From positions 1 to 60,011 of the IMG/VR virus record IMGVR_UViG_3300027806_000047: a stretch of 60,011 nucleotides of DNA; one strand, written 5' to 3'. Positions 25,174-41,381 of this stretch are shown here, in pieces. The notes below the pieces were generated by a model. That model saw only the letters and a list, made by a program, of their open reading frames with translations, was not told the DNA's origin and did not search any database. The number at the start of each line of letters is the position of its first letter. Within the stretch, counting starts at the first letter, position 1. The position numbers and the translations under genes were made by a program. The DNA comes from a virus (Duplodnaviria; Caudoviricetes).

Positions 25174-25374
25174 TTACTCCGGCTTCTGGTCGCTCTCAGA
25201 AGGAGCCGCGAACCCAGCGGCTTTCGCTCGCCGGTACTTCAGCCGCTCTTCCGGGGTAAGCGGGGCACCCGACCTCATCTTCAGCTCCGCGTAAGCGGCG
25301 AACGACTGCAGAGCGTCCTCCTCTGGAGTCGTGTCCGGAGGGTCTTTGGAGAAGTCGGCGGGAAAGGCGCTCAT
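25174..25374 (-). CDS. hypothetical protein
   Basis: ATGA-coupled to the giant protein stop. Confidence 0.6.
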   Translation of the reverse strand: MSAFPADFSKDPPDTTPEEDALQSFAAYAELKMRSGAPLTPEERLKYRRAKAAGFAAPSESDQKPE

Positions 25375-28300
25375 GGCTTCAGTGTAAATCGCTTGAGGGT
25401 GCTGCCGTCCAGGCCCTCAGTGTAGTACTGCTTGGCCCGTACCTGCGCCAGCACCGCGTCCGGCGTGATGTCAGAATGTTGGAGCAGATCGTGAGTCAAA
25501 TCCAGACTGGAGTGTCCGACCGCCTCGTTCTTGATCGCGTTCCACCCCAACGTCGGCGATCCGCCGACGTTGGGGTGGTTGCCCAGCAGGTTTTTGATGT
25601 CCTGGGACCGATCGATGGCCGCCTGGAGTACCGTTTCCATCCCCTCGTAAAACGCGAGGGAGAAAGTAGGATCGGCGTTTTCGATCGGCCCATAACCGCC
25701 GTAGATGCTTGCGACATCCTCGGGGGTGCCGGTGCTGGTGTACTTGAAGTAGTCCTGCGGGGCCTTGCCGAACTGCCCCATGAAGAACTCGACGAACTTC
25801 CAGCGGTCCATGATCAGACCAGGGATGCCGAAGGTGAGGCCAACGAACCGCTGGACCTTGTTTTTGATGCCGACCGATCCGCGGTTGAGGGACCAGAAGC
25901 GGCGCCCCATCTCGCGGGAGGAGGGCGTGGCGTAAACGTCGGAGACTTTGTCCCAAGCCCCGTTCCACCGGGACAGCATCAAATAGAACGAATTGGCGTT
26001 CGAGGTCGCCGAATTGCCGAGCAGGTTGCCCGGCTGCGCGGTCGCCTTGTAGGCCCGAGAAACGATGGCGTTCCAGGCATCCTGAGTGAAGTCGGGGCCG
26101 AGGGTTCCGTCGATGGACTTCTGGATGTGCTCCAAGACCTCCGGTTGAGAAACTAGCCGAAGCCACGACGCCTCCTGGTGGATGGGGGCAAGGCGGCGAG
26201 ACAGCACCCCCCACAGGTGGTGCATCGCAGCCACCATGGGCGGAGGAGCCACGAACTGCGATGCGCCTTGGACGCGGGCCTGTATCGCCTGCCGCATCGC
26301 CACGGTGCTGTCCAAGCCGGACATGGCTGCCGCAAGGGTGCCGGCAGCGGTCTTCGGGCCGTGGTAAGCTCCAGTAACCAGGGCGACGTACTGTTGCGGG
26401 TTGTTGAGGAGCAACTCAGCCCCCGGCGGCGGCATCAGCACGTTGCCGGAGACGCCCGCCGTACGCATGAACTCGACGTATCCTGCGGGGTCGACAAACC
26501 GCGTCGGGTCGTTCCGCACCCGGTCGACAGCGGCGTCCAACCGCCCAAAAAACACCTTCTGCAGCTCGGTCTGGTTTTTGGCTCCAGCCAAAGAGTTCTT
26601 TGGCAGACTCTTGGCCAGCGTCGGCATCGTGTAGGAGACCAGCGGGACCAAGTCTTGCTTGCTTTGCGAAAGCTCCTTGAGCTTGGCGCGAAGGGCTTTC
26701 TTCTCTTCCTTCGTAGCAGCCGCGGCCATCGCAGTATTCACCTCCGCCATCTCGTCGGCGATGGCGGACATGCCCATTTTTTCCGCTTTCACGGTCGCCC
26801 CAGGGACCCGGACCAAGTACTTCGGGTCCGGGGTGACCGCAGGGCTGAAACGAATGTCTTCCTTTGCTTGGTCGAACCGCTGCGACAGCGGGATGACGTT
26901 GCCGGCGTCGTCGCGGGTGATGGGGTCGGCGGATTTGATCTGGGTTGGGTCGAAGGCAACGTATTCTGTACCTCCTTTGAATCCAGGCGCATCCTGAGTC
27001 CTAATAATAGCCCCATCAAACCCATCTTGCTTTGCCTTCATTCTGAACAGTCTCGCCTTCGCTACGGTATCCAATGCGGACTGCTCTCTTTCTGAGAGTT
27101 CAATCGGGTTTTCAATGCGCAGGAAATACGGAGCAGTGTTTCCGTATTGAGACGCGGTTTCTTCTGAATCAGAGAAGAATGAACCAAGTGCTGACGATTC
27201 GTGCCTTGATGTCTTCTCTCCGGCGCGAACGTTGAACACCGTCGGCTTTGCTCCACCATGCCACACCGGCCCAACCGTGTACCCCGCCTTTACCGCCGCC
27301 TCATCGACCATCCGCTGCGCGGCAGCCGTGTCGCCCTTCTGCACCGCCGAGAGGTAGGCGGCGTCCTGCTCCGGAGTGATCTTCGGGCTGAAGAGGAGGT
27401 CCTTCTCGGTCGAGAGGCGCTCGACGGTGGCGACGCGGTTCGCGTTGTCAGTGTAGGTCTCGACCGCGAGGCCCGCCTGCCTGAGAGCGTCCACGACCTC
27501 AGGCGAGGTGGACTCCGGCACCACGGCGGCCCGGAACTCGTTCAGGGTCACGGCGCGTTGCGGCTTCGCCTCGAAGTACTCCGTCGGGGCGGTGGCCAGC
27601 TTCGTCGCGAAGTCCCGGACCGCCTTCACCAGGCTGTCTGGGACACGCTTGAACCCTGCCGCCGATAGGAGGGCTCCGGTCGTGGCAGGGCGCTTGGCGG
27701 CCTTGCCGACGGCCTCGGACAGGCGGTCAAGGCGCTCGAACGCGCCCGCCTCCGGGTTGAAGTACTGGAGCCTGTCCGACAGCTCCGAGAACTCCCGCGA
27801 CTGGGCGTCCTTGAACGCCCGCATGCTTTCGCTGTCGGTTAGCGAGCCCCTCTCAGAGCGCACGGCTTCCAAGCTGGGAAGCGCCTTGGCCGAGTCGGAG
27901 CGGGCCTTACCGAGCGAGTAGGTCATGCCCCTCTCGCGAGCCCGGGGGTCGCCCGACATCTCCTCGACCAGGGTGTCGAGAGCGTAGGGCTTCTTGGTGC
28001 GGCCGGAGAGCAGCTTCTGGTCGGTCTCGAAGGTGTCGGCAACCAGACCGTCCACCCACTGCTCGAACTCGGCCTTGAGAGGTGTGAGCTGCTCGCGGAT
28101 CCAGTCCTGGATGCCGTACCTGTCGATTTCCTGCTCGTTCTTCGCGACGGTGGCCAGATCGTCCACGATGTCGCTGATGTAGCGAAACGGGAACGGAGTG
28201 CCTCGGGCACCGTAGGACTTTTCCATGAGCCCGTTCAGGCGCTGCTTTTGCTCCTCGGTGATGCCTTCCAGATCGCTCATCCGCCCCGCGACCGCCAGGT

Positions 28301-31300
28301 CCCGGACGGCGTCTCCGGCGGCAATGCCTTCTGGCGTTTGGAGGAAGTCGTAGAGGTCGCTGGAATGCTGCGACAGCACTGCCAGGCTCGGGTCTGCGAG
28401 CTGCTCCCGACTCAGGGAGCGGTTCCGAAGGTTGGGGTCCTTCATCAGGCGCGGCACCTCGATACCCCTCTGGGTGAGGAAGGCGGCCTGCACGTCCGGG
28501 GCGCCGGCCAGCTTGCGACGTGTCTCCAGCACGTTGTTCTCCCCCTTCTCGACCACCATGTCGTAGGCGCGTTCGCCTGGGGCGAGGTCGCTCCATGTCT
28601 GGAAACCCTTCGGGAGGAGTTCCTTCATCCGCTTCGAGAGCCTGTCCCGTGCTCCGCGCTTCACGGCCTGGAAAGGGCGCGGCTGGCGCGGAGAGTACAC
28701 GTCCGCGTTGTAGACCTTGTTGCGGGGATCCGCCTGGGGGTCGATGGCCGACTTGTCCGCGATGAGCGTGATGTCGCCGAAGCCCGTGAAGGCCGTGTCC
28801 TTCTTGGTGATGCCGAGGCTGGGCACTGGGATGCCGCCGAGCTTCAAGGCAGCGCGGATGCCTTCCTCGGTGGTGTTGTGCAGGGCCACCAGGTTCCGAT
28901 CGACCTTCGGGCTGAAGCGGATGTCTTCCTTTGCTTGGTCGAACCGCTGCGACAGCGGGATGACGTTTCCGGCGTCGTCGCGGGTGATGGGATCGGCCAA
29001 CTTGATTCGATCGGGGTCGAGCACGGCATAGGAATCGATCCCCTCCCGCTCCTGGAGCTTGAAGACTCTGAACCCTTGGCTGATCAGCTCCGCTCCAGCG
29101 TCGGCCGCCGGGTAGTCAAAGATCTCCCAAGTGAGATCTTTCTTGGGGTCGAACCGCGGCGACTTTCGGGCCGGATCCAGCTCCTGCATTTCACGGAACA
29201 GGTCCTCGTCTGCCGCCCATCCTCCAGCCTCATTGAACGCCCGGACCAGCTCCTTGTACTGCGGAGATTCTGGATCGGACAAATCGGCCACCTTGTCATC
29301 AGCTCTGAGGTAGAACGATCTCAGGTTGGACCCATAGCCCCGAGCGTACTCCTTGTCGGCGGTGAAGTACGAAGCCCCAGCCCTGCCGGGCTCAAACTCG
29401 GTGAACTCGTCGCCGGTCCCGTGCCATAGAGGGCCCAGCGTGTACCCCGCCGCCTTCGCCGCCTCATCCACCATCCGCTGCGCTGCCTGGGTGTCGCCCT
29501 TCTGCACCGCGTCGAGGTAGGCGGCGTCCTGCTCCGGAGTGATCTGCGGGCTGAACCGCTCCTGTCCCTTGGTGCTGATGGACTGGGCCATCTCAGGGGT
29601 GATGGAGACCTTCCAGAATGGGGTCTTCGCTTCTCCAGAGGACTTCACCTTGTAGCCCGCGCCCGCGTCGGGAGGTGCGACGTCCAACTCCGCCTTCTCG
29701 ACCTTCCCTCCCCACTGCTTGACGTACTTCTGGACCTCGTTGGGGAGGATCTTGTCGTAGAAGCCGCGCATGCCCTCTCCGCCAACCTTGAGATCAACCC
29801 CGCCCAAGGAACGGCGGGTGCCGAAAGCCGGTTGCGCGAGAAGTTTCTCCGCAGCCTCCTTGCCGATGTACTCTGGCAACTGCTCGGGTGATACGCCCGT
29901 TTGCTCAATGACCGTCTTGCCGTTGAGGTCGTAGGCTTTCAGGTTCGTGCCGGAATAGTGGATCTCGGAGATCCGCTTGCTCAGGTCAAACCGAGTCGCC
30001 TGGGTGTCGCCGGTAGTCCAGCCGACCCACCCCTGCCCGTTGGCCACCGCTTCCCGAAGAGCCCGTTTGAACATCTGAAGGCCCCAGTCCTTACGGAACG
30101 GCGCGTCAGGGACTCCGGTCTGGCCCCCGGTCTTTGAATTGATGTCGGACGACAGCGTGGTGATCTCGTCCTGCTGTGCTGGCGTCCGGTCTTTGGCGGG
30201 AATCTTGAGCAGCTCATCGAGGCGAGACTGCATCTGCTCCTTTGTTTGAGCGTACCCTTTCTGACGGCCCTCTTGATGGCGGTCGCTCTGGACCTCTTCG
30301 ATGAACAGGCCCGGCCGCCCGTCAGCATCGACACGGTCCTTGAGTCGCATGTGCGCCACGTAGTTAGAGGTGTCGAAATGGCGAGACTTGTAGCTCCCGC
30401 GCTCCCGATCGAACACGGCCCCCCTGTTGAGAGATTCCAAGGCACCTGCCACGGCCTCTTGTTCGGTGTTGAACAGGCCGTCAAGGCGGCTGTGGTTGAA
30501 CCCGACCTTGAAGCCGGACTTGTCGGACACCCAATACCCCTCCTTCGTCCCCGACTTCTGGAGCTTTGGCTGATACCCGGGAGGCAGTTCAGTCAGTTTC
30601 TTCTCCGGCATCGCCAGCACGACTTCGCGATAGTCCTCACCACCCGGCAAAGTGTAGTCGGCGTATTGAGAGTAGCCCGTATCGTCACGTTCCGAGCTGA
30701 AAACCTCTTGGCGCAACGGAACGCGGTTCTTCTGGAGTGCCTGCATCAGGGCCTCCTTGGGGACCTTGCCACCGTTCTGCGCGGCGAGCTGGTCGATGAC
30801 CTCGTCGGCCTTCGTCCACTTCATCTCCTCGGCCTTGACGCCGCGGTTCCGGAGCACTGCCTTCAACTGGGCGGCCGGCATCGAAGCACCCTTCATCTCG
30901 TCGCCGATGACCTGCTCCAGCTTCGAGTAGAAGCCCTTCTCCGGGCTCTGGGCGACGCCGGGGCTGAACAGGAGCTTCTCCCCAGCGTTGCGAACGACCT
31001 GGTCCTCGGAAGCCTCTCGGGGCGGGGTCTCGAACAGCCTCGGGGGCCGCATCATCGCATCGCGAAGTCCGCCGAATCCGGGGATGAACGCATCGTCCAA
31101 GATGCCGTCCCTGACCAGTTGCTCGAACATCACCGCGTCCGACTCGAACGACCCATACGCCACTGCCGATGAGGCTCCGTTGGCGATGGCGAACTTGCGG
31201 ACTTCCTCGGCGAACTTCTTGGAGTCGATGTTCGGGGAGATCTCGCCAACCGCTTTGATGTACTTGCGAGGATCCAGAAAGAGGATCATCCGAGACGGGT

Positions 31301-34300
31301 TGTTGGGGTTGGCAAACGCTGCCCCCACGCGAGCCAGCGCCGACGGCCCAACGATTTCAGCGTCCCAGATTGGCTTGTTGAGCCACTTGTCGGGGCCCGG
31401 CGCGGGCACCTGCACTCGATCCACGCTGCCGAAGCTCGTAATGATGTGGTGGTCGGTGTGGTTGGTAACGACGTGGCCCAAGAAGCGCAGCGTCGCGAGC
31501 GGGGAGCTTCGGAATCCAACCCACGACAGAATCGACTTCGTTGCCCGGACGTCCGGCTCGGAGGGGGTAGAGATGCCGGAAGGATGGTTGTGGGTCCAGA
31601 ATAGGCTGTCCGCACCGGACGCGACCGCCATCTTCGAGAGTTGGTCGATGTCTAAACCTTTCGTCAGCATGTGGACCGCGTCCGGCTGACGGACCGTCGT
31701 GTTCGCGACGGCCACCACTTTGCCTTCCTTCACGAACACCCACCGCATCGCCTCGAAGGCCGGGTTCCGGAACAGCGCGGCGACGGCGTGGCGGTCCTGG
31801 GCGGTCGCGGCCGACATCCCGATCGGGTTTACGGGACCGCGCTTCAGTAGGCGCTTGATGCGGCTGGCAGTGATCGAGAACGTGGTCGGCGCGTCCTTCG
31901 GTTGGCGAGGTGCTCGCGGGGCGGGCGAGGGCTTCTCAGGGGCCAGCGCCTCCTCCGTTCCGAGCTGATCCACGGCCTTGTTGAAGTTCAGCTCGAGCTG
32001 CTCGGGCGGGACCACCTGCGGGCTCAGGTTCCGGACCTGCTTGCTGTAGTCGGGCTTCTGGTAACCCGTCACGTCGCTCGGCTCGACGGTCTGGAGACGG
32101 TCGGCGCGGTAGGAGCGCACGATGCCCTGACGGTCCTTGCCCTTGGCCTGGGGCCGCAGCGGGTTCAGCGCCTCGAAGGTGCGATTGCCGCCCACCAGGA
32201 AGACGTTGATGACGTTCCGCTTCATCTCGCCGATGCCGTCCGACCCCGGTCGGCCCTCAGCGTGGTTCTTCAGGTAGGTCTGGACGTCGGCCTTGAAGGT
32301 GCTCAGGTCGCCGTTCCACAGCTCAAGACTTAGGGGACCCTTTCGGCCTGCCCAGTCGGAGGCCTTCCGGTCCAGAGCCGTCAGGCTGTAGTTCTGCACC
32401 AGGAGGTTGCCCTGCTTGTCGACCTTGAACGCGAAGGGGATGAAGTCCTTGTACTGGGCTTCCATCGCGCCCAGGGACTCGCGGACGCTCGCGGCCCAGC
32501 CGTCGCCCGTGCCGATCTGCTGATACCAGCCGGCCATCGTCTCGTTGTTCGCGATCGCCTGCTCGACGCGGCGGAGCATGTTCTTGGTGCCCTCGCCGAA
32601 GCTGCGGGCCGTCGCGTAGAACTGCTCGCCCAGTCGGGTGCCGGTCTTCTCGGTCAGCCCCGACGGGCCTTGGCGGACGCCGACGTTGCTCGCCTGCGGG
32701 TTGGCGTTTCCGGAGGGCGGGACGTCCGGGAACAGCGTCAGCACTTCCTTTCGGCGGTTCCGGACGCGGGCCCGGACGACCGGGACGGGCGTCTCGCGGG
32801 TCTGGCCGTTCACGACATCGACAAAGTCGTTGCCCTGAGTGCCGTCGGCTCGGGTCTCGGTCGGGAGGGCAGGGTGGTTGCCGGCCTGCTCGGGCCGGAG
32901 CCTCACGCCGGGCTCCTTCTGCATGTCCACGGCCGGCCGGAACTCCGAGGCCGCCTGGAACTGCTGTCGCACCAAGTCGAGGGTGGCCGGATCCTTGAGC
33001 ACTTTCCGCACGTCAGCATCCCGGAAGAACGACTGCGTGTCGGTGCGCCCTAAGACGACGGGAAGCGCCTCGTTCAGGTTCACTCCGCGGAGACCGTTGG
33101 CCATCGCCTCGGAGAACAGTTCGCCGACGATGAAGGCGTCGTCCTGCGGGATCGTGCGCCCGAGGGCCTGCTGGTAGTCCTGGCGAGCGCGGGCCATGCC
33201 GTCGGGACCGAGAGCCTGCCGGAAGTGCTGGATGATTGCCGGATTCGAGGCGGCGACCGACGCCATGAGGGCATGGCCGATCTCATGGAGCTGCCGGCCG
33301 GCGGCATCTACAGCCTCCAGGTTGACGGCGACGCGCCCTGTGGACTCGTCAAAGTAGGCCGCCGCGTTCGGATCCTTCGACGACTTTGCGAACTGGGCCG
33401 CATCCATCAGGTCGACCTTCAGGTCCTGACGTCCGGCCAGCATTCCCTGGAACGTCTGCTCCAGGATGACCGACGAGTGCATCAGTTCATCCGGGGTGGA
33501 CGCAACGACCAAGGGGTCCGCACCCGCTTGGATCGACTCGGAGGCCTTCCGCATCGAGTCGTAGGCGAAAGCCAGAGCCTTCCGCTCACGCGACATCCGG
33601 CGGAGCGCCGGGAGGGTGCCCGCGCCGCCGAGCAGGCCGCCGACGCCCGCTTCGCCGCCGATCTCCTCGCCCGACTTGCTGGTGTCTAGGCCGGTGAGCA
33701 GTGCGTCGGTGGCCGCGCCCTCGACGACGCCCTTGCCGAGGTCGCTGCCGACCCGCAGGCCCGTCTCGACCATCTGGCCGGCCTTCAGCTTGCCGACGAC
33801 GTTGGCCGTCACACCCCGGACAAGCCACTGGGGCGCGTTCGGGTCCTTGGCGATCTGCCGCCAGACGGGGATCGAGGAGTCCCAGTCCGCGTCCGCGATG
33901 GTGCGGAGCGCCGTGCCGGCCCGGGAGGCATTCTCCGACCACCGAGCAGCCTTTCGGATCGCTTCGGGCACCTGGGAACCGGCGAGGGCCCCCAAGGGAC
34001 CACTCGACGCGCCTGCGACGGCGCTGGCGGCACTCAGGGTGCCTTCGTATTTGTCCGCAAGCTCGCCAACCTTGCCGGCGGCCCTCTCCACCAGCTTTCC
34101 GCCGGTCTCGGCAGCCCGGCCGGCGGCCCCAATGCCCCGCTGGAATGCCCCCGGGCCCGCCTGAGCAGCTTCTGCGGCTTTCTTCGCAAACAGCGACTGG
34201 GCCCGCTTCGACTCCGAAGGCGGGGTCAATTGGATCGAGGGCGTCTGGAGGGGCGGGGCAGTCTCGTCGCTGCGCTGAACGGCCTCTTCCCAGGCCTTGC

Positions 34301-35201
34301 GGTTGTTCTCGGCGATGCGGGCGGCGCTGCCTTTGGCCTGTTGGGCCTTCGCAATCGTCGCTGCCTTGCCGCCCATCTCCAGAATGGGGGTGCCCAGCTT
34401 CTTGGTGATCCCGGGGGCTACCTTTTCGCCAATGCGAGTGCCGAGCCTGACCGCTCGGGATTGGAGAAGACCCGGGTCGGCCACCATCGACGCCAGCTCG
34501 GTGGTCTGGGCAAGGTCCTTCGGTGGGGTAACCGCCTTACCGAGCTTTTCGGCAATGGTGGTGTCTCCGCCTGTGGCCAAGTCAGCAACAGACGTGACCA
34601 CCTCCCCGAGCAGAGAACGATCTCCCTTCTGTAAGGCCTCGCGATCCGCCGCCTGCGCCGCGTCGCGGGCTTGAGCTTCGCGAATGACCGCAGCAGCCTG
34701 CCGGGGAAACACCTGAAGCATGGACAGCGTCCGGTCCATGCTGGGGCCCGCAAACTGCCAAGCGTTTTCGACCGCCCGGTCCACCGTGGGCAGGAACCCC
34801 TCTTCCGCGACTGCTCGACGCAAGACTCGGTAAGGGTCGAGTACCTGAGACTCGAACACATCCTTACCAAGTTGCCCAAGGTCGGCCGCACCGCGGAGAA
34901 CCGCTTCACCAGCCACCCTCGACGCATCCGTACCGGGAAGGTCGGGTTTGAGGTCCGGCGGAGCTGTCATCCGTCCGGCCAGCTCGCCAGCCGCGCCCGA
35001 GACTTGGCCCGCGAAGTCCGAAATGCCCTGCACGGCCCCCCGGGCATACGCCATCGGGTTTAGGCGGGATTTTACGGCCTCAGTACGGGCCTCGACGGCC
35101 TGCTGCGTCTCCAGCTCCTCCGGACTGACCACAGGAGCGTCGGCGATGAAGGGCTTGGAGCCGGCGGTCTTGATAGCAGGGTAGTTGGCGATGAAGGGCA
35201 T
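25371..35201 (-). CDS. giant polyvalent internal virion/ejection protein (3276 aa)
   Basis: Last gene of the ejection cluster. HEIGH zincin, HNHPSG..PS..D JAB/RadC, EEVQSD domain, two WHG ART-like domains, YFEAKP domain, HhH-like C-terminus. Confidence 0.85.
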   Translation of the reverse strand: MPFIANYPAIKTAGSKPFIADAPVVSPEELETQQAVEARTEAVKSRLNPMAYARGAVQGISDFAGQVSGAAGELAGRMTAPPDLKPDLPGTDASRVAGEAVLRGAADLGQLGKDVFESQVLDPYRVLRRAVAEEGFLPTVDRAVENAWQFAGPSMDRTLSMLQVFPRQAAAVIREAQARDAAQAADREALQKGDRSLLGEVVTSVADLATGGDTTIAEKLGKAVTPPKDLAQTTELASMVADPGLLQSRAVRLGTRIGEKVAPGITKKLGTPILEMGGKAATIAKAQQAKGSAARIAENNRKAWEEAVQRSDETAPPLQTPSIQLTPPSESKRAQSLFAKKAAEAAQAGPGAFQRGIGAAGRAAETGGKLVERAAGKVGELADKYEGTLSAASAVAGASSGPLGALAGSQVPEAIRKAARWSENASRAGTALRTIADADWDSSIPVWRQIAKDPNAPQWLVRGVTANVVGKLKAGQMVETGLRVGSDLGKGVVEGAATDALLTGLDTSKSGEEIGGEAGVGGLLGGAGTLPALRRMSRERKALAFAYDSMRKASESIQAGADPLVVASTPDELMHSSVILEQTFQGMLAGRQDLKVDLMDAAQFAKSSKDPNAAAYFDESTGRVAVNLEAVDAAGRQLHEIGHALMASVAASNPAIIQHFRQALGPDGMARARQDYQQALGRTIPQDDAFIVGELFSEAMANGLRGVNLNEALPVVLGRTDTQSFFRDADVRKVLKDPATLDLVRQQFQAASEFRPAVDMQKEPGVRLRPEQAGNHPALPTETRADGTQGNDFVDVVNGQTRETPVPVVRARVRNRRKEVLTLFPDVPPSGNANPQASNVGVRQGPSGLTEKTGTRLGEQFYATARSFGEGTKNMLRRVEQAIANNETMAGWYQQIGTGDGWAASVRESLGAMEAQYKDFIPFAFKVDKQGNLLVQNYSLTALDRKASDWAGRKGPLSLELWNGDLSTFKADVQTYLKNHAEGRPGSDGIGEMKRNVINVFLVGGNRTFEALNPLRPQAKGKDRQGIVRSYRADRLQTVEPSDVTGYQKPDYSKQVRNLSPQVVPPEQLELNFNKAVDQLGTEEALAPEKPSPAPRAPRQPKDAPTTFSITASRIKRLLKRGPVNPIGMSAATAQDRHAVAALFRNPAFEAMRWVFVKEGKVVAVANTTVRQPDAVHMLTKGLDIDQLSKMAVASGADSLFWTHNHPSGISTPSEPDVRATKSILSWVGFRSSPLATLRFLGHVVTNHTDHHIITSFGSVDRVQVPAPGPDKWLNKPIWDAEIVGPSALARVGAAFANPNNPSRMILFLDPRKYIKAVGEISPNIDSKKFAEEVRKFAIANGASSAVAYGSFESDAVMFEQLVRDGILDDAFIPGFGGLRDAMMRPPRLFETPPREASEDQVVRNAGEKLLFSPGVAQSPEKGFYSKLEQVIGDEMKGASMPAAQLKAVLRNRGVKAEEMKWTKADEVIDQLAAQNGGKVPKEALMQALQKNRVPLRQEVFSSERDDTGYSQYADYTLPGGEDYREVVLAMPEKKLTELPPGYQPKLQKSGTKEGYWVSDKSGFKVGFNHSRLDGLFNTEQEAVAGALESLNRGAVFDRERGSYKSRHFDTSNYVAHMRLKDRVDADGRPGLFIEEVQSDRHQEGRQKGYAQTKEQMQSRLDELLKIPAKDRTPAQQDEITTLSSDINSKTGGQTGVPDAPFRKDWGLQMFKRALREAVANGQGWVGWTTGDTQATRFDLSKRISEIHYSGTNLKAYDLNGKTVIEQTGVSPEQLPEYIGKEAAEKLLAQPAFGTRRSLGGVDLKVGGEGMRGFYDKILPNEVQKYVKQWGGKVEKAELDVAPPDAGAGYKVKSSGEAKTPFWKVSITPEMAQSISTKGQERFSPQITPEQDAAYLDAVQKGDTQAAQRMVDEAAKAAGYTLGPLWHGTGDEFTEFEPGRAGASYFTADKEYARGYGSNLRSFYLRADDKVADLSDPESPQYKELVRAFNEAGGWAADEDLFREMQELDPARKSPRFDPKKDLTWEIFDYPAADAGAELISQGFRVFKLQEREGIDSYAVLDPDRIKLADPITRDDAGNVIPLSQRFDQAKEDIRFSPKVDRNLVALHNTTEEGIRAALKLGGIPVPSLGITKKDTAFTGFGDITLIADKSAIDPQADPRNKVYNADVYSPRQPRPFQAVKRGARDRLSKRMKELLPKGFQTWSDLAPGERAYDMVVEKGENNVLETRRKLAGAPDVQAAFLTQRGIEVPRLMKDPNLRNRSLSREQLADPSLAVLSQHSSDLYDFLQTPEGIAAGDAVRDLAVAGRMSDLEGITEEQKQRLNGLMEKSYGARGTPFPFRYISDIVDDLATVAKNEQEIDRYGIQDWIREQLTPLKAEFEQWVDGLVADTFETDQKLLSGRTKKPYALDTLVEEMSGDPRARERGMTYSLGKARSDSAKALPSLEAVRSERGSLTDSESMRAFKDAQSREFSELSDRLQYFNPEAGAFERLDRLSEAVGKAAKRPATTGALLSAAGFKRVPDSLVKAVRDFATKLATAPTEYFEAKPQRAVTLNEFRAAVVPESTSPEVVDALRQAGLAVETYTDNANRVATVERLSTEKDLLFSPKITPEQDAAYLSAVQKGDTAAAQRMVDEAAVKAGYTVGPVWHGGAKPTVFNVRAGEKTSRHESSALGSFFSDSEETASQYGNTAPYFLRIENPIELSEREQSALDTVAKARLFRMKAKQDGFDGAIIRTQDAPGFKGGTEYVAFDPTQIKSADPITRDDAGNVIPLSQRFDQAKEDIRFSPAVTPDPKYLVRVPGATVKAEKMGMSAIADEMAEVNTAMAAAATKEEKKALRAKLKELSQSKQDLVPLVSYTMPTLAKSLPKNSLAGAKNQTELQKVFFGRLDAAVDRVRNDPTRFVDPAGYVEFMRTAGVSGNVLMPPPGAELLLNNPQQYVALVTGAYHGPKTAAGTLAAAMSGLDSTVAMRQAIQARVQGASQFVAPPPMVAAMHHLWGVLSRRLAPIHQEASWLRLVSQPEVLEHIQKSIDGTLGPDFTQDAWNAIVSRAYKATAQPGNLLGNSATSNANSFYLMLSRWNGAWDKVSDVYATPSSREMGRRFWSLNRGSVGIKNKVQRFVGLTFGIPGLIMDRWKFVEFFMGQFGKAPQDYFKYTSTGTPEDVASIYGGYGPIENADPTFSLAFYEGMETVLQAAIDRSQDIKNLLGNHPNVGGSPTLGWNAIKNEAVGHSSLDLTHDLLQHSDITPDAVLAQVRAKQYYTEGLDGSTLKRFTLKP
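26842..28997 (-). repeat. dispersed direct repeat pair (26842-26930 and 28909-28997)
   Basis: Both copies encode ADPITRDDAGNVIPLSQRFDQAKEDIRFSP with near-identical DNA. Confidence 0.9.
27278..29555 (-). repeat. dispersed direct repeat pair (27278-27392 and 29441-29555)
   Basis: Both copies encode FSPxITPEQDAAYLxAVQKGDTxAAQRMVDEAAxxAGYT. Confidence 0.9.
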
Positions 35202-35204
35202 GGC

Positions 35205-36386
35205 TTATGGCTTGCGTTTGACCTCCCCCGAATCATCAAGGAACAGGGTTCCGGATGGCAGGGCGTTGAACTCGGCTTCTGATCGGACCCGTTCTACTCC
35301 GGGCGGCAGCGAAGGCCCCCCGGCCGGGGCCTCGAGGCCGAGGTCGACGGCTCGAGTGTTGAGGTCGTTCACCAGGCGATCGATCGCGTTCTTGGCGACC
35401 GTGTCGTCCGCGGTCATGCCGAGCGGCACCATGAACTTCTTGGTCGCGTTGACTTCGCCCTCACGCGCCACGCTGCCGGGGTCCAAGACCTTGGCCATGC
35501 TGATCGCCAGCAGGTAGGGGTTCTGCTCCAAAAGGGCCGCGTCTTGGGCGTTTCCAAACCGGCTTTCCCAGGTCCCGCTCCGGTCAATCGCGTCCTTCAG
35601 CTCCTGGGCGTACCGGCGGGCGGCCTTCAGGTTTTGGAGCGTGACGGTCTTGTCCGAAATCTTGGTCGCCGACTCCGGCTGGTTGTATGGAGACAACTTC
35701 ACCTCGTTCGACTTCGGGTCGATCGTCCGGATGAACTGCCCTTGTCCCCCGCTGGGGAGCGGAAGATCCACGATCTGCGGCTCGGTCACCGGATAGGTGC
35801 GCTCAAAAGTAGGGCCGGTCGGCCCCACCGAGCCAATGCGCCAGCCCGGAGTTGCCGCAGGGGCCGCAGGGGCCGCAGGGGCCGCAGGCACTCCTCCAGG
35901 AGCGGCGGGGGCCATTACGTCCGGGGCCGGCCCGCTGACAGGAGGAATGCCTCCGGCCGCAGCGTCCGGCCGGCCCAGAAACATTTCGTAATAGTTCGGC
36001 TTCAGCTCCTCGGCTTTCCCGTCTTCGCTGATCAGGAACCGTTTCCCTCCGATGTCCCTGACGACCGGCTCCCCTGGGATGCGCTCGAAGGTAAAGTCCG
36101 TTCCGCCGAACTCGTTCCGAGTGCCCGTCTTGGCCCGCATGCCTGCGGGCACCTGCGGGGGCTGAAGGCTCTTGTCGATCGCGCCTTTCTTGATGCCGAG
36201 AAGCTCAAGGTCGAGCTTGTGTCGAGCAGCGTCGCGGGCGGCCCGCTCCCGCTCGATGTCGAGCCGGTCCTTCTCGTAGCCCATCCGCTGCTCCTCGAGC
36301 TGCTGCCGGCGCTTGCGCTCCTTCGACTCCGCGAGCATGCCCATGCCCTGCTGGAACGCCTGAAATCCGCTGGTCCAATCGCTCAT
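35205..36386 (-). CDS. putative ejection/internal virion protein
   Basis: Position, N-terminal amphipathic plus coiled-coil region, C-terminal EFNALPSGTLFLDDSG. Confidence 0.65.
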   Translation of the reverse strand: MSDWTSGFQAFQQGMGMLAESKERKRRQQLEEQRMGYEKDRLDIERERAARDAARHKLDLELLGIKKGAIDKSLQPPQVPAGMRAKTGTRNEFGGTDFTFERIPGEPVVRDIGGKRFLISEDGKAEELKPNYYEMFLGRPDAAAGGIPPVSGPAPDVMAPAAPGGVPAAPAAPAAPAATPGWRIGSVGPTGPTFERTYPVTEPQIVDLPLPSGGQGQFIRTIDPKSNEVKLSPYNQPESATKISDKTVTLQNLKAARRYAQELKDAIDRSGTWESRFGNAQDAALLEQNPYLLAISMAKVLDPGSVAREGEVNATKKFMVPLGMTADDTVAKNAIDRLVNDLNTRAVDLGLEAPAGGPSLPPGVERVRSEAEFNALPSGTLFLDDSGEVKRKP

Positions 36387-36395
36387 GGTTCCTCC

Positions 36396-37151
36396 TTACA
36401 AAAGTCCTGCTGCACTTGCTGCACCTGCCGCGCCGAGACCCTGCAAGATGTAGTCGCCCGCGCCCGGCTTGTAGTACTGGTTGCCATTCATGGCCGGGGG
36501 CTCGCCGCTTGCCAGCGTCTTCACCAGGTTGGCGATGGTGTCGTAGCCCGCGTACTCGAGGCCGGGGATAGCCTGGAGCATCTCCACCGGGCGCGATGCA
36601 GCACTCGAGACGATCTGAGGGGCGGCCATCTGAAGTCCGCGCTCCCGGGCGTAGTTCTCGGCCTGCGTCTGAGCCTCGGTGGCCCCCATTGCAGCCTGGC
36701 GCATCGCCTCCTGCCGACCGATCTGGGCCTCCAGAGCCGCCGCGGTGCCCTCCTGGGCGAGTTGGTTGCCGGTCCCGAAGGTCTGGCCCGCCCGGCTGAA
36801 CTGGGCGCGGGAGGCGTTCTGGGCCGACGCGAGGTTGGCGCGGGCGTCCGCAGCACCTGCCTGGGCGGCCGTGTTGGATGCCGCACGGGTAGCGGCTAGG
36901 CTCCGGTCCAGCAGCGGGCTGCGGAGGTAGTCCCCGCGCATCACACTCCTGCCGAACTGGCCGACAGGAGCCATGGCTCGCGCCCCCGTCCGGGCCGCCG
37001 CGACGGCTTCCTGAGCGCCGGCCCCGGCACGGCCTTGGATGCCTGGCAGGGCATCGAACACGTATTTCCGAAGAGCCTGGCCCCCGCTCTGGCTGTAGAG
37101 CGGGTCCATCTCCTTCGGGTCGGCTTGCTTGGTATCTCCGCAAAATCCCAT
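36396..37151 (-). CDS. putative ejection (pilot-like) protein
   Basis: MGFCG start, Ala/Gln-rich helices, hydrophobic Gly/Ala C-terminus. Confidence 0.65.
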   Translation of the reverse strand: MGFCGDTKQADPKEMDPLYSQSGGQALRKYVFDALPGIQGRAGAGAQEAVAAARTGARAMAPVGQFGRSVMRGDYLRSPLLDRSLAATRAASNTAAQAGAADARANLASAQNASRAQFSRAGQTFGTGNQLAQEGTAAALEAQIGRQEAMRQAAMGATEAQTQAENYARERGLQMAAPQIVSSAASRPVEMLQAIPGLEYAGYDTIANLVKTLASGEPPAMNGNQYYKPGAGDYILQGLGAAGAASAAGLL

Positions 37152-37166
37152 AGATCCTCCTGTGTG

Positions 37167-37421
37167 CTATCCCAGCCGGGTCCAAGGACCCGGCTTCGGT
37201 TTCTCGTCCGACAAGTACCCCACCCAGATCCCCCGATCCGGGTCCGAGAAGATCGTATCTTTCGGGGGCCGATTGACCAGCGGGTTCCAGCCCCGGTAGT
37301 CGACAGCATACGGGTTGAGCTTCGGCGCGGGCGGCGCAGGCGCAGCCGGCGTCGGGGCGGGCGGCGTCGGGGCGGGCATTCCCCCGGCCGGGCGCGGTCG
37401 TCGACTTCCAAAGCATCCCAT
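37167..37421 (-). CDS. 84-aa Pro-rich protein starting MGCFG
   Basis: ATG 2 nt after the previous stop, fills the operon gap. Confidence 0.55.
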   Translation of the reverse strand: MGCFGSRRPRPAGGMPAPTPPAPTPAAPAPPAPKLNPYAVDYRGWNPLVNRPPKDTIFSDPDRGIWVGYLSDEKPKPGPWTRLG

Positions 37422-37423
37422 GG

Positions 37424-37762
37424 TCAGAAATCGTAAGAGAACAGCGGCTTCCTGGGCGGGACGGGCAAGAGCATCGGTGCCTTCCACGATTTCCCAACCG
37501 GCTCGGCGCTCGAAGGACTTCGGAAGCCCTGGTTGAAGGCGCCGATGAACGGAGACGCCATACCCTTCAACGATTTTGCTCCGGCCCCTAGAAGCTGGAA
37601 AGGAGCTTTCACGACGTTGTTGATGGCGTCCTGGGCGGTGAGCGCGGGGCCAGACAAGGCCGTGGGTTCCGCCAACTGGGAGAAACGCTCCCGGTCACGT
37701 ATCCGACGGGCGAGGTCCATGCTCCCGCCAAAGCTCTGAAATCCGCTGCTCCAGTCGTCCAT
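37424..37762 (-). CDS. small putative virion protein starting MDDWSSGFQSF
   Basis: SD AAGGAG. N-terminus shared with 35205-36386. Confidence 0.6.
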   Translation of the reverse strand: MDDWSSGFQSFGGSMDLARRIRDRERFSQLAEPTALSGPALTAQDAINNVVKAPFQLLGAGAKSLKGMASPFIGAFNQGFRSPSSAEPVGKSWKAPMLLPVPPRKPLFSYDF

Positions 37763-37814
37763 AAAGTACTCCTTGTTGGGACCCTATGTTGAGGGAGCCG
37801 GAATCGTCCAGACC

Positions 37815-38243
37815 TTAGTCCCAGCAGTACTCGCGATGCTTCTCGGACATCGCGTTCATGTGGGCCGGTCCCCCGCAGAGGTAGGCGACCTGGAAGAAGA
37901 AGTTCTGGTAGCCGCTCTTGATCACCTCGGCGGCCATCTGGTCCTTGATGTCGCTCCGCTTCCTCCAGGCCTCGCTGTCGATCCACTCCATCACGCCCGT
38001 GCGGAAGGTGCCCAACAGCACGTCCCGGTTCGCCTGGAAGAATGGGTTGGCCGAGACGGCCTCGGTGAAGACCACCAGGGTGAGTCCGACCGTGCGGGCG
38101 TCCACCTCCTGATCTCGATCCACCAGGTCATCGATGACGTGGAGGAACTGGTACACCGCCCAGCAGGCGTGAAAGGCGTTCTGGTCTCCACAGCACACCT
38201 CGGTAAAGATCGTGTCGATCTTCTGCTTGTGATCGGGACTCAT
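37815..38243 (-). CDS. isoprenoid-synthase-like (DDxxD) helical protein
   Basis: FLHVIDDLVDRD resembles the first Asp-rich motif of trans-prenyltransferases. All-helical, 142 aa. Confidence 0.55.
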   Translation of the reverse strand: MSPDHKQKIDTIFTEVCCGDQNAFHACWAVYQFLHVIDDLVDRDQEVDARTVGLTLVVFTEAVSANPFFQANRDVLLGTFRTGVMEWIDSEAWRKRSDIKDQMAAEVIKSGYQNFFFQVAYLCGGPAHMNAMSEKHREYCWD

Positions 38244-38443
38244 CCTACGCTTTTACCGTCGAGCTGGGTCTGAAGCTCCCGGACACACTCGGCCAGGTTG
38301 CGGATCGTCTGTTCCACCTCTCGGGTGTACGCAGCCATCGCAGTTTTCTCATCCTCGGACAAGCGAGAGATGGGCGGCCACCGGACTGCGGGCGCTACGA
38401 TGGAGTTTCCGACCTTCTTGATGAGCTTGATCGTGGTGGGCAT
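38240..38443 (-). CDS. small coiled-coil protein
   Basis: Coupled at both ends, YTREVEQTIRNLAECVRELQ. Confidence 0.65.
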   Translation of the reverse strand: MPTTIKLIKKVGNSIVAPAVRWPPISRLSEDEKTAMAAYTREVEQTIRNLAECVRELQTQLDGKSVG

Positions 38444-40587
38444 CAGTAGGCTCCTCCCTTGCGGGCGGTGATGTGGTAGCCGGAAACGCCCCAGTTGGCT
38501 CCGACGCTCTCCGAAGAGAACCGCACTCGAATGTACCGACCGCTGACGGTGGCGTTGACCTTGGTGGGCTCCGACCCGGCCGACGAGACGAGCAGGTTCT
38601 GGGGCACCGACCAACGGATGGGGCTGTTGAGGTTGTCCCTCGCGCCGATGGTCACTTGGAGAGTGGCGTCGCTCGGGACATTCTCCTTGCCGTTCAGGAC
38701 GATGTACACGGTGTCCACGTACTTCCAGATGGTGGGGTCACCGAAATCGAAGTCCGGCGTCTCGGCGGAGCTGGGAATCGGGTCCGGGTTGCAGTCGTCC
38801 CGGGAGGAGCGCGACCAGACCCGGCCGTGGACCAAGAGGCGGGGCACTGTCTTGTCCGGATCCTCCCCTCGGACCACGCTGCCGGCATCCCCGCCGATGG
38901 CCACCAGCGTGTATTCGCGCTCGGCGACGTCCACGTACTCGTACCACCGCTTGGCAATCCCGTTGCACTTTTCCGACGGGTCGAGCGAACTCCAAGTCGG
39001 CGCCAACTCCCAGTCGACGCGACCCAGGGCCGTTATGCCGTTGAGGTCGTCGGGGTATCGGTCGATGACCACCGAGTCCTCGGCGTAGTTCCAGATGTAG
39101 ACCTTGGTGACACCACTTGGTGTCGGGTAGGTGAACCACACTTCGCTGTCGCGCCGATTATGGTGGGCGACGATCTCGTCGGCTCGGGCCCAGTCCACCT
39201 CGTCTCGGAACTTCTCCCAGTGCTGCTGGGCGATCGCCCGGAGATTCTGCCCGCCTCCGTAGAGGTACATCCCTTTGTTACCGATAAAGGCGATCTCGCG
39301 GTCGCCTGCGCGGCACCAGGAATAACGGCCGATCGGCCCCTCGTCGATGATCTCGGGCCGGATGAAAAACGTCCCGGCCGCCTGCCCGACGCTTTGGATC
39401 GACTGGATGGACCGCTTCTTCAGGATGTAGGCGAACTCCGCCAACGTGACGACAGCGAAGATCTCGCCGTTGATCGCCGCGCCGACGTTGAGCACCTCGC
39501 CCGACTCGTTGGCGTTGACGGTCTCCACGGCGGACCCAGAGGGGATCTTTGCGCCGACGGCAGTGCCCCCGGTAAACCCGAGAGGAGTCAGCACCAGAGA
39601 AGACACGACGGTCACCTCGGCCTCCGGTGGGATGATCACGCTGCTGGTGCCGGTGTTTTCGACCTCGACCCAGTTCTGGAAGGACACCCGTGACCCGACC
39701 GAAAATACCTGGCCGGTGATTCGGTCGCCGATGCCGAGGCGCTCCACGGTGACCGAAAACGAAGGGGCCTGCTTGACCCGGTACAGGTCCTGGCCGGGGT
39801 TTTCGGTCGGGCCAATGGACAGGACGTCACCCGCAAACATCTCCGTGGGAACAGAGCCAAAGGGCAAGACGAGGGTGGCTCCGATTTCCGGGATCGGCGG
39901 GCTCGCCGCGGAGGTCTGGTAGGCGTAGTTCGCATTCCGGCTCCGGGCGGTGACTTTCAGGGCCGTCACCGCGCCGTTGACCTTGAGGCGGGCCCCCGTG
40001 GTCCAGTTGACGTAGGTATCGTAGCGCCCCAGGTAGATGCGCTTGGTCTGGCCCGCCTCGACGGACTGGGACCGTTTGATGGCGTTGGTGCGCTGCACCG
40101 ACTCCAGGGCCACGTCGGACACGCGGAAGTAGTCGTAGGCGATCTTCTTGAGGTCGCTCTCGTAGCTGACGATGCGGGCGAACTGGCCGGTCACGAACTC
40201 ACCCGCCAAGCCCGTGACGTAGGCGTGGGCCGTGGTGGACCCAGCCGGGGTCATCGTGAAGTCCGACTCAAGGCTTGCCGTCCCGAAGGCCGCCGTGACT
40301 CCGACGGGGATCCAATTGGAAAAATCCCCGCGCCCGCTCCACTTCAGCAGAGCCCCGCGCCAGAGCATGACGTGGTCGTCGAACACCTCGACGCCGTCGT
40401 AGCCGTTGGCGTCGGGAAGCCCTGGGATCGGACGGGCCTGCCCAGTGCCCGGCCAGAAGAGCGGCTGGACCGACGGCGTGGCGAACAGGACGCGGTCGAT
40501 GTAGTCGGCCGCGTACCAACGTGCGGTGCGGGCGGTCGAAGCCCCCGAGTAGATCGAGTCGAGAATGCCAGAAAACTGCAACGCCAT
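38443..40587 (-). CDS. tail nozzle/stabilisation protein (P22 gp10 or T7 gp12-like), C-terminal part
   Basis: LKWSGRGDFSNW, AFIGNKGMYLY, EVWFTYP..IWNY, SGRYIRVRF. Propeller-like pattern and position. Confidence 0.75.
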   Translation of the reverse strand: MALQFSGILDSIYSGASTARTARWYAADYIDRVLFATPSVQPLFWPGTGQARPIPGLPDANGYDGVEVFDDHVMLWRGALLKWSGRGDFSNWIPVGVTAAFGTASLESDFTMTPAGSTTAHAYVTGLAGEFVTGQFARIVSYESDLKKIAYDYFRVSDVALESVQRTNAIKRSQSVEAGQTKRIYLGRYDTYVNWTTGARLKVNGAVTALKVTARSRNANYAYQTSAASPPIPEIGATLVLPFGSVPTEMFAGDVLSIGPTENPGQDLYRVKQAPSFSVTVERLGIGDRITGQVFSVGSRVSFQNWVEVENTGTSSVIIPPEAEVTVVSSLVLTPLGFTGGTAVGAKIPSGSAVETVNANESGEVLNVGAAINGEIFAVVTLAEFAYILKKRSIQSIQSVGQAAGTFFIRPEIIDEGPIGRYSWCRAGDREIAFIGNKGMYLYGGGQNLRAIAQQHWEKFRDEVDWARADEIVAHHNRRDSEVWFTYPTPSGVTKVYIWNYAEDSVVIDRYPDDLNGITALGRVDWELAPTWSSLDPSEKCNGIAKRWYEYVDVAEREYTLVAIGGDAGSVVRGEDPDKTVPRLLVHGRVWSRSSRDDCNPDPIPSSAETPDFDFGDPTIWKYVDTVYIVLNGKENVPSDATLQVTIGARDNLNSPIRWSVPQNLLVSSAGSEPTKVNATVSGRYIRVRFSSESVGANWGVSGYHITARKGGAY

Positions 40588-40625: not shown

Positions 40626-41381
40626 TCACCCGGCAAGGATTGCCCTGTTGAACAGGTCCGGATCCATTCGTTGGAGCCGGCGCCGTACCCGTCCGACGCA
40701 TTCCTCGCTGTGCTTACAGTGCATGAGGTGGCAGTAGCCCAAAGCCTCCGCCTCGAGCGGGTTGGTGTGGTTGAAGAGCGTGGTGACCCTCTTGCCACAG
40801 TCGCGGGCGTGGCGGGCGAGCCACGCCTGCTCGTAGACAGTCATCGCGACAGGGTCGAAAGCCTCCACCTCGCGGATCGCCTCCAAGCCCTTGGTCGCGT
40901 AGTCGCACAGGAACTCCACATCGTGACCTCCGATGATCCCGACGTTGTAGCAGTCCCAGGCGTGGTCCGGAGTCGTCAGCCGAGCCCGGTGCTGCGACGG
41001 AGTGACGTCCAGGCTCCAGTCGTAGAGGGGCCGGGGCTCGAAACTCTGCGCGAACACCGGGGCCGCAACGACGTGCTCCGGAAGAGCCTTGAAGAGAAAG
41101 ACGTCCTGGTCGATGTGGATGAAAGGCTCCTGCTGGATCGAGTATGCCTTCATCTTGCCCGCCGCCCACGCCTTTGGCGTCACGTCGAAGCCCTCCAGGT
41201 CGGTACGTACCGACGTGAAGGGAAGCTGCATCCGCTCGAAGAGCCGCGCCCCCTGATCGTCGGTGACCATCTCGATCTGATCGTAATGCTGCCGGGCCAG
41301 AAGCACCGACACGGCCAAGATGACCCGATGGTCGACCGACATGAACCTCGGGGCCGACCAGTGGCTGTAGACGACTCTCAT
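40626..41381 (-). CDS. DUF6734-like putative glycosyltransferase
   Basis: VYSHWS...VTDDQG...WAAGKMKAYSIQQEPFIHIDQDVFL...YNVGIIGG...EQ. TGATG-coupled. Confidence 0.7.
   Translation of the reverse strand: MRVVYSHWSAPRFMSVDHRVILAVSVLLARQHYDQIEMVTDDQGARLFERMQLPFTSVRTDLEGFDVTPKAWAAGKMKAYSIQQEPFIHIDQDVFLFKALPEHVVAAPVFAQSFEPRPLYDWSLDVTPSQHRARLTTPDHAWDCYNVGIIGGHDVEFLCDYATKGLEAIREVEAFDPVAMTVYEQAWLARHARDCGKRVTTLFNHTNPLEAEALGYCHLMHCKHSEECVGRVRRRLQRMDPDLFNRAILAG

Follow-up and report, generated by a model that had tools for sequence, protein, structure and literature searches.

The whole of the IMG/VR virus record IMGVR_UViG_3300027806_000047 (Caudoviricetes; 60,011 bases, estimated completeness 91%) was analysed and is called the window here. 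In this window, a gene on the minus strand at 37815..38243 encodes a 142-amino acid (aa) protein with an Asp-rich DDxxD motif, and we suggest, with a probability of roughly 0.3, that the protein is a minimal class I isoprenoid-synthase-like dimer that prenylates the N-termini of the ejection proteins encoded next to it. The gene, the family to which it belongs, the conservation of its motif, the resemblance of its predicted fold to isoprenoid-type enzymes, its position, and the co-variation of its presence with the N-terminus of the neighbouring protein were established directly. In the proposed mechanism, the protein would be a phage-specific minimal derivative (~140 residues, 7 helices) of the class I isoprenoid-synthase fold that retains one squalene/phytoene-synthase-like DDxxD for a Mg2+-diphosphate ligand and probably works as a dimer. 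It would be produced together with the late structural genes and would target the very N-termini of the internal (ejection) proteins whose genes come right after its own, at an aromatic residue or Cys beside the N-terminal Gly. In the most likely chemistry, a host allylic diphosphate would supply the prenyl group placed on those N-termini, which would render the ejection proteins membrane-active during DNA delivery. Homology to isoprenoid synthases, dimerization, catalysis, the protein substrate and the prenyl donor are the interpretive steps of this proposal. Support is moderate for the enzyme-fold part and good for the link to the ejection-gene cluster, a link made more precise by gene swapping in the slot and by the N-terminal co-variation; the prenylation chemistry and a Trp acceptor are suggested by analogy alone.

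The open reading frame (ORF) of the DDxxD gene starts with ATG and is real, in agreement with the preliminary description of a 142-aa helical protein with HVIDDLVDRD at 37815-38243. The motif occupies residues 35-44 (codons 38112..38141, minus strand) at the C-terminal end of helix 2. In PHROGs, the protein was assigned to phrog_21390 (function unknown) at 3e-17. No Pfam family exceeded its cut-off; the sole match was SQS_PSY, with an expectation value (E) of 0.048 and 13.8 bits over residues 25-52, corresponding to 38088-38171 of the window. The exhaustive phmmer search revealed 399 family representatives, counted at 50% clustering, at E<=1e-3 and 103 at <=1e-10, and the closest Atlas clusters are 94-97% viral. 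When 129 single-domain members were compared, D38 and D42 were present in 100%, D39 in 97% and D44 in 87%. In addition, G19, A23, N66, F68, A120, G124 and G125 were each found in at least 91% of these members, the last five each in at least 93%, and R137, H128 and K109 in 88%, 84% and 74%, respectively. Because the polar residues are invariant at an overall identity below 30%, this conservation pattern suggests an active or ligand site.

The family is distributed over phages and apparent prophages. Among 50,697 phage records, tblastn with the target and two family members gave no match, and other family members used as queries matched Achromobacter phage CF418P1 only; no literature on this phage was found. 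One clade of the family (L089-L102) consists of apparent prophages in bacterial chromosomes of Halomonas, Vreelandella, Bisbaumannia, Pseudomonas, Aquipseudomonas, Stutzerimonas, Thiobacillus and Amphritea. These genera are candidate hosts for the wider DDxxD family, not for the virus of the window itself.

The AlphaFold2 (AF2) model of the 142-aa protein (predicted local distance difference test score 92.3, predicted template modelling score 0.86) is all-helical with 7 helices, and HVIDDLVDRD lies at the C-terminal end of the helix spanning residues 21-42. When the model was compared with 48,161 chains using VIA-align, all 50 matches listed were isoprenoid-type enzymes. Judged by their titles, 46 of the 50 are trans-prenyl diphosphate synthases, MoeN5, small subunits of hexaprenyl, heptaprenyl and geranyl diphosphate synthases (HexPPS/HepPPS/GPPS), and class I terpene synthases. 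The other four are membrane enzymes, three of which (4od4, 6m31 and 8djm) are of UbiA type by their titles, and the fourth, 8j8j, we take to belong with them. The isoprenoid-synthase-type fold put forward in the preliminary description is moderately supported by VIA-align and was not recovered at E<=0.001 by Foldseek. In the latter search against PDB, polyprenyl synthases appeared at probability <=0.95 with query TM-scores of 0.52-0.60 and E ~1, amid four-helix-bundle noise of low TM-score. The BFVD search returned solely uncharacterised phage proteins, four of them at probability 1.00, and a giant-virus trans-prenyltransferase appeared only at E 2.6.

Profile comparisons point to the same superfamily. 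When a 12-sequence family profile was searched against PDB, phytoene synthase 5iys (E 0.023) and CrtM (E 1.1) were matched, and with a 127-sequence profile the matches included MoeN5 (E 0.032 and 0.042), 5iys (0.21) and CrtM (0.89), so that isoprenoid enzymes made up four of the five PDB matches. The family motif HxxDDLxDxD aligns with the Asp-rich motifs of 5iys, CrtM and MoeN5, and both MoeN5 motifs align to family helix 2 with the larger profile. We then used hhalign with 30 SQS_PSY and 11 polyprenyl_synt genes taken from bacterial genomes as comparison sets. The 127-sequence family scored 30.4 against SQS_PSY (P 8e-4, probability 24%), compared with P 0.22 for reversed SQS, P 0.35 for the reversed family and P 0.058 for the best of 26 unrelated alignments, and the greedy alignment additionally pairs VAxLxGG of the family with YCxrVAgvvG of SQS. 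Considering the sequence and fold data together, we regard the DDxxD family as probably homologous to the isoprenoid-synthase superfamily.

Detailed comparison with individual superfamily members revealed both likeness and difference. In squalene and phytoene synthases (SQS/PSY; PF00494; PDB 5iys, CrtM 8is6), aFcRxaDDixD and its helix align with xFxHxxDDLvDrD of the family and both proteins are all-helical, but the DDxxD protein has 142 aa and 7 helices versus ~280 aa, and one Asp-rich motif per chain versus two. MoeN5 (PDB 5b00/5b02) differs in its length of ~260 aa and in its substrate, a lipid-linked intermediate, and the E-values of its matches are not significant. The HexPPS/HepPPS small subunits (PDB 3aqb_A, 5h9d_D and 9kp1_A) have no Asp-rich motifs and their partner is a catalytic large subunit, whereas DDxxD is invariant in the phage family. 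Among 11 window proteins scanned, no match to polyprenyl_synt was found. Residues 87-91, the conserved WxDSE of the DDxxD family, do not correspond to any recognised NSE/DTE motif.

The three best phmmer relatives, P0013-P0015 (305-314 aa), are tandem doublets in which each half has an Asp-rich motif of its own; in P0015 one of the two is degenerate. Each domain on its own matches the isoprenoid core over ~160-200 residues of full-size enzymes, so in structural models a single domain appears to be a stripped-down version of the whole core, not one half, and the tandem doublet looks like a fused dimer. Because some relatives are natural tandem doublets, a dimeric working form is probable for the 142-aa protein. 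In the idea that the protein is half-size and possibly homodimeric, "half-size" is inexact. The homodimer prediction scored 0.21 against a mark of 0.42 and is used as evidence neither for nor against dimerization.

Other relatives carry the DDxxD domain in fusions. The N-terminal lipocalin domain of CrtC is present in P0079, P0087 and P0116 (E 4e-16 to 7e-12) and also in P0163-P0165; when longer relatives were sought, 4 CrtC fusions were all that came up. In P0102 the domain is joined to a CMAS-type S-adenosylmethionine (SAM) methyltransferase. P0086 and P0127 have a fused C-terminal domain of ~130 aa and P0132 a fused N-terminal domain of ~240 aa, and no Pfam or PDB match was found for these domains. 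P0162 is also among the natural fusions of the DDxxD domain. In one lineage (L005, L003 and also L045), a UbiE/CMAS-like methyltransferase gene is located directly upstream of the DDxxD gene and a gene resembling 3'-phosphoadenosine-5'-phosphosulfate (PAPS) reductase two genes downstream, both within the structural module (L005:9168-9950 and L005:12634-13473). The fusion and neighbour partners point to lipid or isoprenoid chemistry, though they are lineage-specific.

The position of the DDxxD gene is conserved. Locus L002 (68% identity) shares the window's gene order in full, and in phage CF418P1 the genes behind the DDxxD homologue encode proteins of 395 and 591 aa and then a giant of 2684 aa, with lysis genes after it. 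Across 86 loci, the gene comes after tail-fibre or nozzle-like genes and before proteins without a known family, with a giant ORF of 1568-2684 aa further on wherever the flank extends far enough. For another downstream protein family, the DDxxD gene was found upstream in 34 of 39 loci. The placement between a nozzle gene and ejection genes, as proposed earlier, is correct in gene order. The upstream gene (38443..40587, minus strand) encodes a 714-aa protein that is kept in L002, L008 and L005; it matches phrog_3287 at 1e-26, which identifies it only as a virion structural protein, and a PDB sequence search gave zero matches. "Nozzle" is accordingly a label by position. "Ejection genes" is likewise a label, given by position and by the polyvalent nature of the giant protein at the end of the cluster.

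This giant protein (3276 aa; 25371..35201, minus strand) contains a RadC-like JAB domain, a PBECR5 nuclease and two ART-PolyVal stretches. As far as the available text of PMC5512222 goes, polyvalent proteins are a class proposed to enter the cell together with phage DNA. The 3276-aa protein is presumed to accompany the DNA during injection. It also has an internal duplication matching its two ART-PolyVal stretches, in which a segment ending ...DPITRDDAGNVIPLSQRFDQAKEDIRFSP, then ...ITPEQDAAYL.AVQKGDT.AAQRMVDEAA.KAGYT.GP.WHG, each occur twice.

The slot occupied by the DDxxD gene is subject to swapping. We fetched loci via the protein encoded directly downstream (+1 protein, A9) of one large lineage, using the best 80 of 294 relatives, and the +1 gene could be called in 77 of these. 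The slot directly upstream of it held the DDxxD gene in 28 loci, a small family termed alt1 in 18, a second one termed alt2 in 18, and something else or nothing in 13. Alt1 (~120 aa; for example L163:4667-5032, L169:4658-5014 and L190:4643-5008) and alt2 (~135 aa; L175:4601-5002, L192:4601-5014 and L204:4582-5010) are unrelated to the DDxxD family and were found where the DDxxD gene is absent. A distant relationship between alt1 and alt2 is possible (hhalign P 0.0018). No Pfam match was obtained for 10 members, and the best PDB profile matches were at E 0.41 and 0.62.

The +1 protein changes with the occupant of the slot. Tyr, Phe, Trp or Cys is present at positions 3-5 of the +1 protein in 27 of 28 loci with the DDxxD gene and in 1 of 49 without it. 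With the DDxxD gene present, the protein mostly starts with MGMY or MGLY, or else with MGCC; without it, the starts are MGT(K/T/S), MGS, MGK, MGGG or MA. Two of the 28 starts look mis-called, namely MQWS, which is counted in the 27, and MPPS, the single exception. When a tree of the +1 protein was built from residue 13 to the end, presence of the DDxxD gene changed ~3 times and the N-terminus switched along each time. One transition is a replacement by alt1 nested inside the main clade (L163, L164 and L167, with MGTxV), and in another, L210 (MGCCK) gained the DDxxD gene independently. An aromatic residue or Cys beside the N-terminal Gly of the downstream protein thus tracks the DDxxD gene.

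In the window, the downstream genes are tightly packed on the same strand as the DDxxD gene. The first (37424..37762) encodes a 112-aa protein starting with MDDWSSGFQSF that has no Pfam family and whose L002 homologue shows 55% identity. The second (37167..37421) encodes a Pro/Ala-rich protein of ~84 aa starting with MGCFGS. We moved its start from the listed GTG at 37487 to the ATG at 37421, which is the likely start because the L002 homologue aligns from residue 23 of the listed ORF; the L002/L260 homologue has 96 aa and starts with MGCFGSNRNR. A 251-aa protein with an MGFCGD start (36396..37151) and homologues in other phages follows, and then a 393-aa protein starting with MSDWTSGFQAF (35205..36386). 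The 393-aa and 112-aa proteins have paralogous MxDW(S/T)SGF N-termini, as was seen when the L002 426-aa protein was aligned with the 112-aa protein (32 residues, 47% identity, E 2e-5).

The Trp- and Cys-containing starts of the next four genes are therefore present as the preliminary description had it, and they recur in two close relatives. Conservation of the Trp across lineages, by contrast, did not hold. Trp is not a conserved feature of the downstream N-termini, since the distant homologous motif, MAGLDTRGLAxGFAQGF, lacks it. In L008/L261, Tyr takes the place of the Cys of the 251-aa protein (MGFYGG). This family was found at 9 loci, and in the 7 examined the DDxxD gene was upstream every time, the N-termini being MGCFG, MGFYG, MGFCD, MSFCT, MPFCN, MGGFT and MSFGP. 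Trp was thus abandoned as the conserved acceptor, and it is Tyr, Phe or Cys beside the N-terminal Gly that tracks the gene instead. On the points at which the preliminary description laid itself open, the data came out in its favour: the predicted fold is not HD- or MazG-like, the DDxxD is near-invariant, and the link with ejection genes recurs in many lineages.

The chemistry is proposed from enzymes that modify ribosomal peptides. According to the available text of PMC13290415, trans-IDS-like enzymes (IDS, isoprenyl diphosphate synthase), namely ComQ, PalQ and ChrPC (P domain), prenylate ribosomal peptides and belong to the isoprenoid-synthase superfamily. By analogy, the DDxxD protein might share both the superfamily fold and the peptide prenylation. 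It differs in that these are full-size enzymes acting on an internal Trp, whereas the DDxxD protein has 142 aa and is tracked by Tyr, Phe or Cys next to an N-terminal Gly. The ComQ-type arrangement, in which a full-length enzyme stands beside a precursor with a conserved Trp acceptor, is not seen in the DDxxD system, and none of the searches made gave a direct sequence match to ComQ. In the literature listings and passages covered, nothing was found that ties phage ejection proteins to prenylation or other lipidation. The words "acyl" and "acetyltransferase" do not occur in the ejection-protein review PMC8954989, "prenyl" and "squalene" do not occur in the available text of PMC5512222, and "phage" does not occur in that of PMC13290415.

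Several observations weigh against prenylation of ejection proteins by a class I-like dimer. With Foldseek, neither the monomer nor the tandem model gave a PDB match at E<=0.001, and the doublet as one full-size class I fold was ruled out, as only residues 166-309 of the tandem model match. The sequence matches are individually below significance (SQS_PSY, 13.8 vs 26 bits), the comparison with polyprenyl_synt was not significant (hhalign P 0.17), and the confident core with SQS_PSY, at the probability of 24%, spans just the 20 columns of the Asp-rich helix. Each domain has a single Asp-rich motif, compared with two metal-binding motifs per chain in known class I enzymes; a second motif (SARM, second DxxxD or NSE/DTE) is absent from the single-domain chains, which have one DDxxD-type motif each. 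On the substrate side, the characterised trans-IDS-like peptide prenyltransferases in the available text of PMC13290415 all target Trp, and the Trp of MxDW(S/T)SGF is missing from the distant homologous motif. The protein directly downstream lacks an N-terminal aromatic residue or Cys in two clades, starting with MSGGGGD (16 loci, the prophage clade) and MTMPDP (7 loci); in these clades, a small protein further down begins with MSYGLLG or MGFGLLG. Finally, the co-variation rests on just ~3 evolutionary events.

These points leave room for other explanations, of which a chaperone-like assembly factor and a lipid-directed enzyme are serious rivals. The DDxxD protein could be an assembly or stability factor that has no catalytic activity or does no more than bind metal, a positional analogue of P22 gene 14, and could bind the ejection N-termini for procapsid loading or solubility; we hold this to be a credible though doubtful account. 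A chaperone-client pair would predict the observed co-variation equally well, and three unrelated small families fill the slot, as interchangeable chaperones would. N-terminal motifs common to several internal proteins could also be capsid-targeting signals, as in T4 internal proteins. The P22 gene 14 protein (gp14; 151 aa), annotated as a "virion stability factor", sits in an equivalent slot between the tail needle gene gp26 and the injection genes gp7/20/16. However, the DDxxD family is unrelated to it (family hidden Markov model -0.3 bits; hhalign P 0.17), and gp14 was rejected as a homologue. It is a DUF2824 protein (Pfam 6e-53), a family to which the DDxxD protein has no match, and its profile search gave a single match, to a putative glyoxalase (E 0.008). 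PMC9728967 and PMC8402733 contained nothing on P22 gene 14. The expectation that an alternative GNAT-like gene occupies this slot is borne out as regards mutually exclusive small genes, namely alt1 and alt2, whose GNAT nature, like that of gp14, is conjectural: gp14 is DUF2824, and alt1 and alt2 gave no Pfam or PDB profile matches. In Pfam annotation of 114 neighbour-cluster representatives, no acetyltransferase was present among the 25 families shown of 32. A near-invariant acidic triad together with N66, K109, H128 and R137 at <30% identity resembles an active or ligand site more than a peptide groove, and fusions to a methyltransferase and to CrtC lipocalin would be odd for a chaperone.

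The same fusions, with the carotenoid hydratase/AttH-like CrtC lipocalin on the one hand and a lipid methyltransferase of CMAS type on the other, would suit an isoprenoid-fold enzyme or binder directed at a lipid diphosphate instead of proteins, for example undecaprenyl or polyprenyl diphosphates or another membrane lipid, in envelope remodelling or exploitation at entry or late infection. The evidence of fold and motif is identical for this explanation and for prenylation of ejection proteins. Enzyme genes are present in the module, encoding the methyltransferase and PAPS-reductase-like protein in L005 and the DUF6734 and metallophosphatase-VWA proteins in the window, and an SQS-like protein of Bacillus subtilis, YisP, functions as a prenyl-diphosphate phosphatase. 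A lipid-directed role would, however, explain neither why the gene stands so strictly just before the internal-protein genes nor the co-variation with neighbouring N-terminal residues, and among the 114 neighbour-cluster representatives each enzyme family is confined to one cluster, with no lipid-pathway partner kept across lineages; we consider a lipid substrate unlikely. A resemblance by convergence appears quite unlikely to us; in that case the protein would be a generic helical bundle using DDxxD to coordinate a metal in some unrelated function, for instance nucleotide or pyrophosphate hydrolysis, or a small-subunit-like regulator of a host prenyl synthase. Convergence would accord with the sub-significant sequence matches centred on a short Asp-rich helix, with the catalytically inert small subunits among the best structural matches (5h9d_D, 3aqb_A, 3qkc_A and 9kp1_A), and with scores of just 0.78-0.80 for the nearest named Atlas clusters. 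On the other hand, all 50 VIA-align matches listed fall in one structural class with two independent models, four of five PDB profile matches are isoprenoid enzymes aligned at the catalytic motif, and SQS_PSY stands clear of 28 hhalign controls. The small subunits lack the DDxxD that is invariant in the phage family, and no HD, MazG or dUTPase-like match appeared in any search made on the DDxxD protein.

In a broader version, which we judge improbable, short-tailed phages would have a cassette slot directly ahead of the ejection genes for interchangeable small enzymes, one of them a ~140-residue dimeric, ancestral-looking isoprenoid-synthase fold that prenylates Gly-rich N-terminal sites next to Tyr, Cys or Phe. 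Ejection proteins with such a lipid anchor would serve the phage in membrane penetration, much as myristoylated VP4 does in picornaviruses. The DDxxD system would then be the first in which proteins of a phage virion are lipidated, and its enzyme would be smaller than any class I prenyltransferase known. The family may bear on how podovirus ejection proteins become membrane-active, and, whatever the function, a 140-residue isoprenoid-synthase core with an Asp-rich motif and natural doublets bears on the origin of the class I fold. Slot swapping coupled to the N-terminus of the neighbour is a new comparative-genomic handle on ejection-protein maturation, and genetics is feasible, as Halomonas, Pseudomonas and Stutzerimonas prophages and a cultured Achromobacter phage carry the family.

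The genomic setting was examined further. The window has a guanine-cytosine content of 61-68%, and no tRNA genes were found across its 60,011 bases. The late module is on the minus strand from ~54,000 down to 25,371. It starts with the large terminase, portal, major head protein, a virion protein and two Gly-rich paralogues, continues with a 774-aa metallophosphatase/Big_2/VWA protein, a DUF6734 protein and the 714-aa phrog_3287 protein, and ends with the DDxxD gene, four small to mid-size proteins without a known family and the 3276-aa protein. The 774-aa protein (41381-43705, minus strand) of the tail module is enzyme-like, with a calcineurin-like metallophosphatase domain in addition to Big_2 and VWA, and so is the DUF6734 protein (40626-41696, minus strand; E 2.6e-38). 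The listed ORFs of these two proteins overlap, and the true start of one is probably further downstream.

The Gly-rich paralogues adjoin each other in the tail region (43569-44387 and 44389-45318, both on the minus strand) and are 26-28% identical to each other, as measured via their L002 homologues; L005 has a Gly_rich_2 domain protein at the equivalent position. A 533-aa protein encoded beside the large terminase gene (54101-55702, minus strand) shows weak glycosyltransferase matches (PHROG E ~2e-4 to 9e-4). In the L010-L036 lineage, a group-1 glycosyltransferase recurs four genes upstream of the DDxxD gene.

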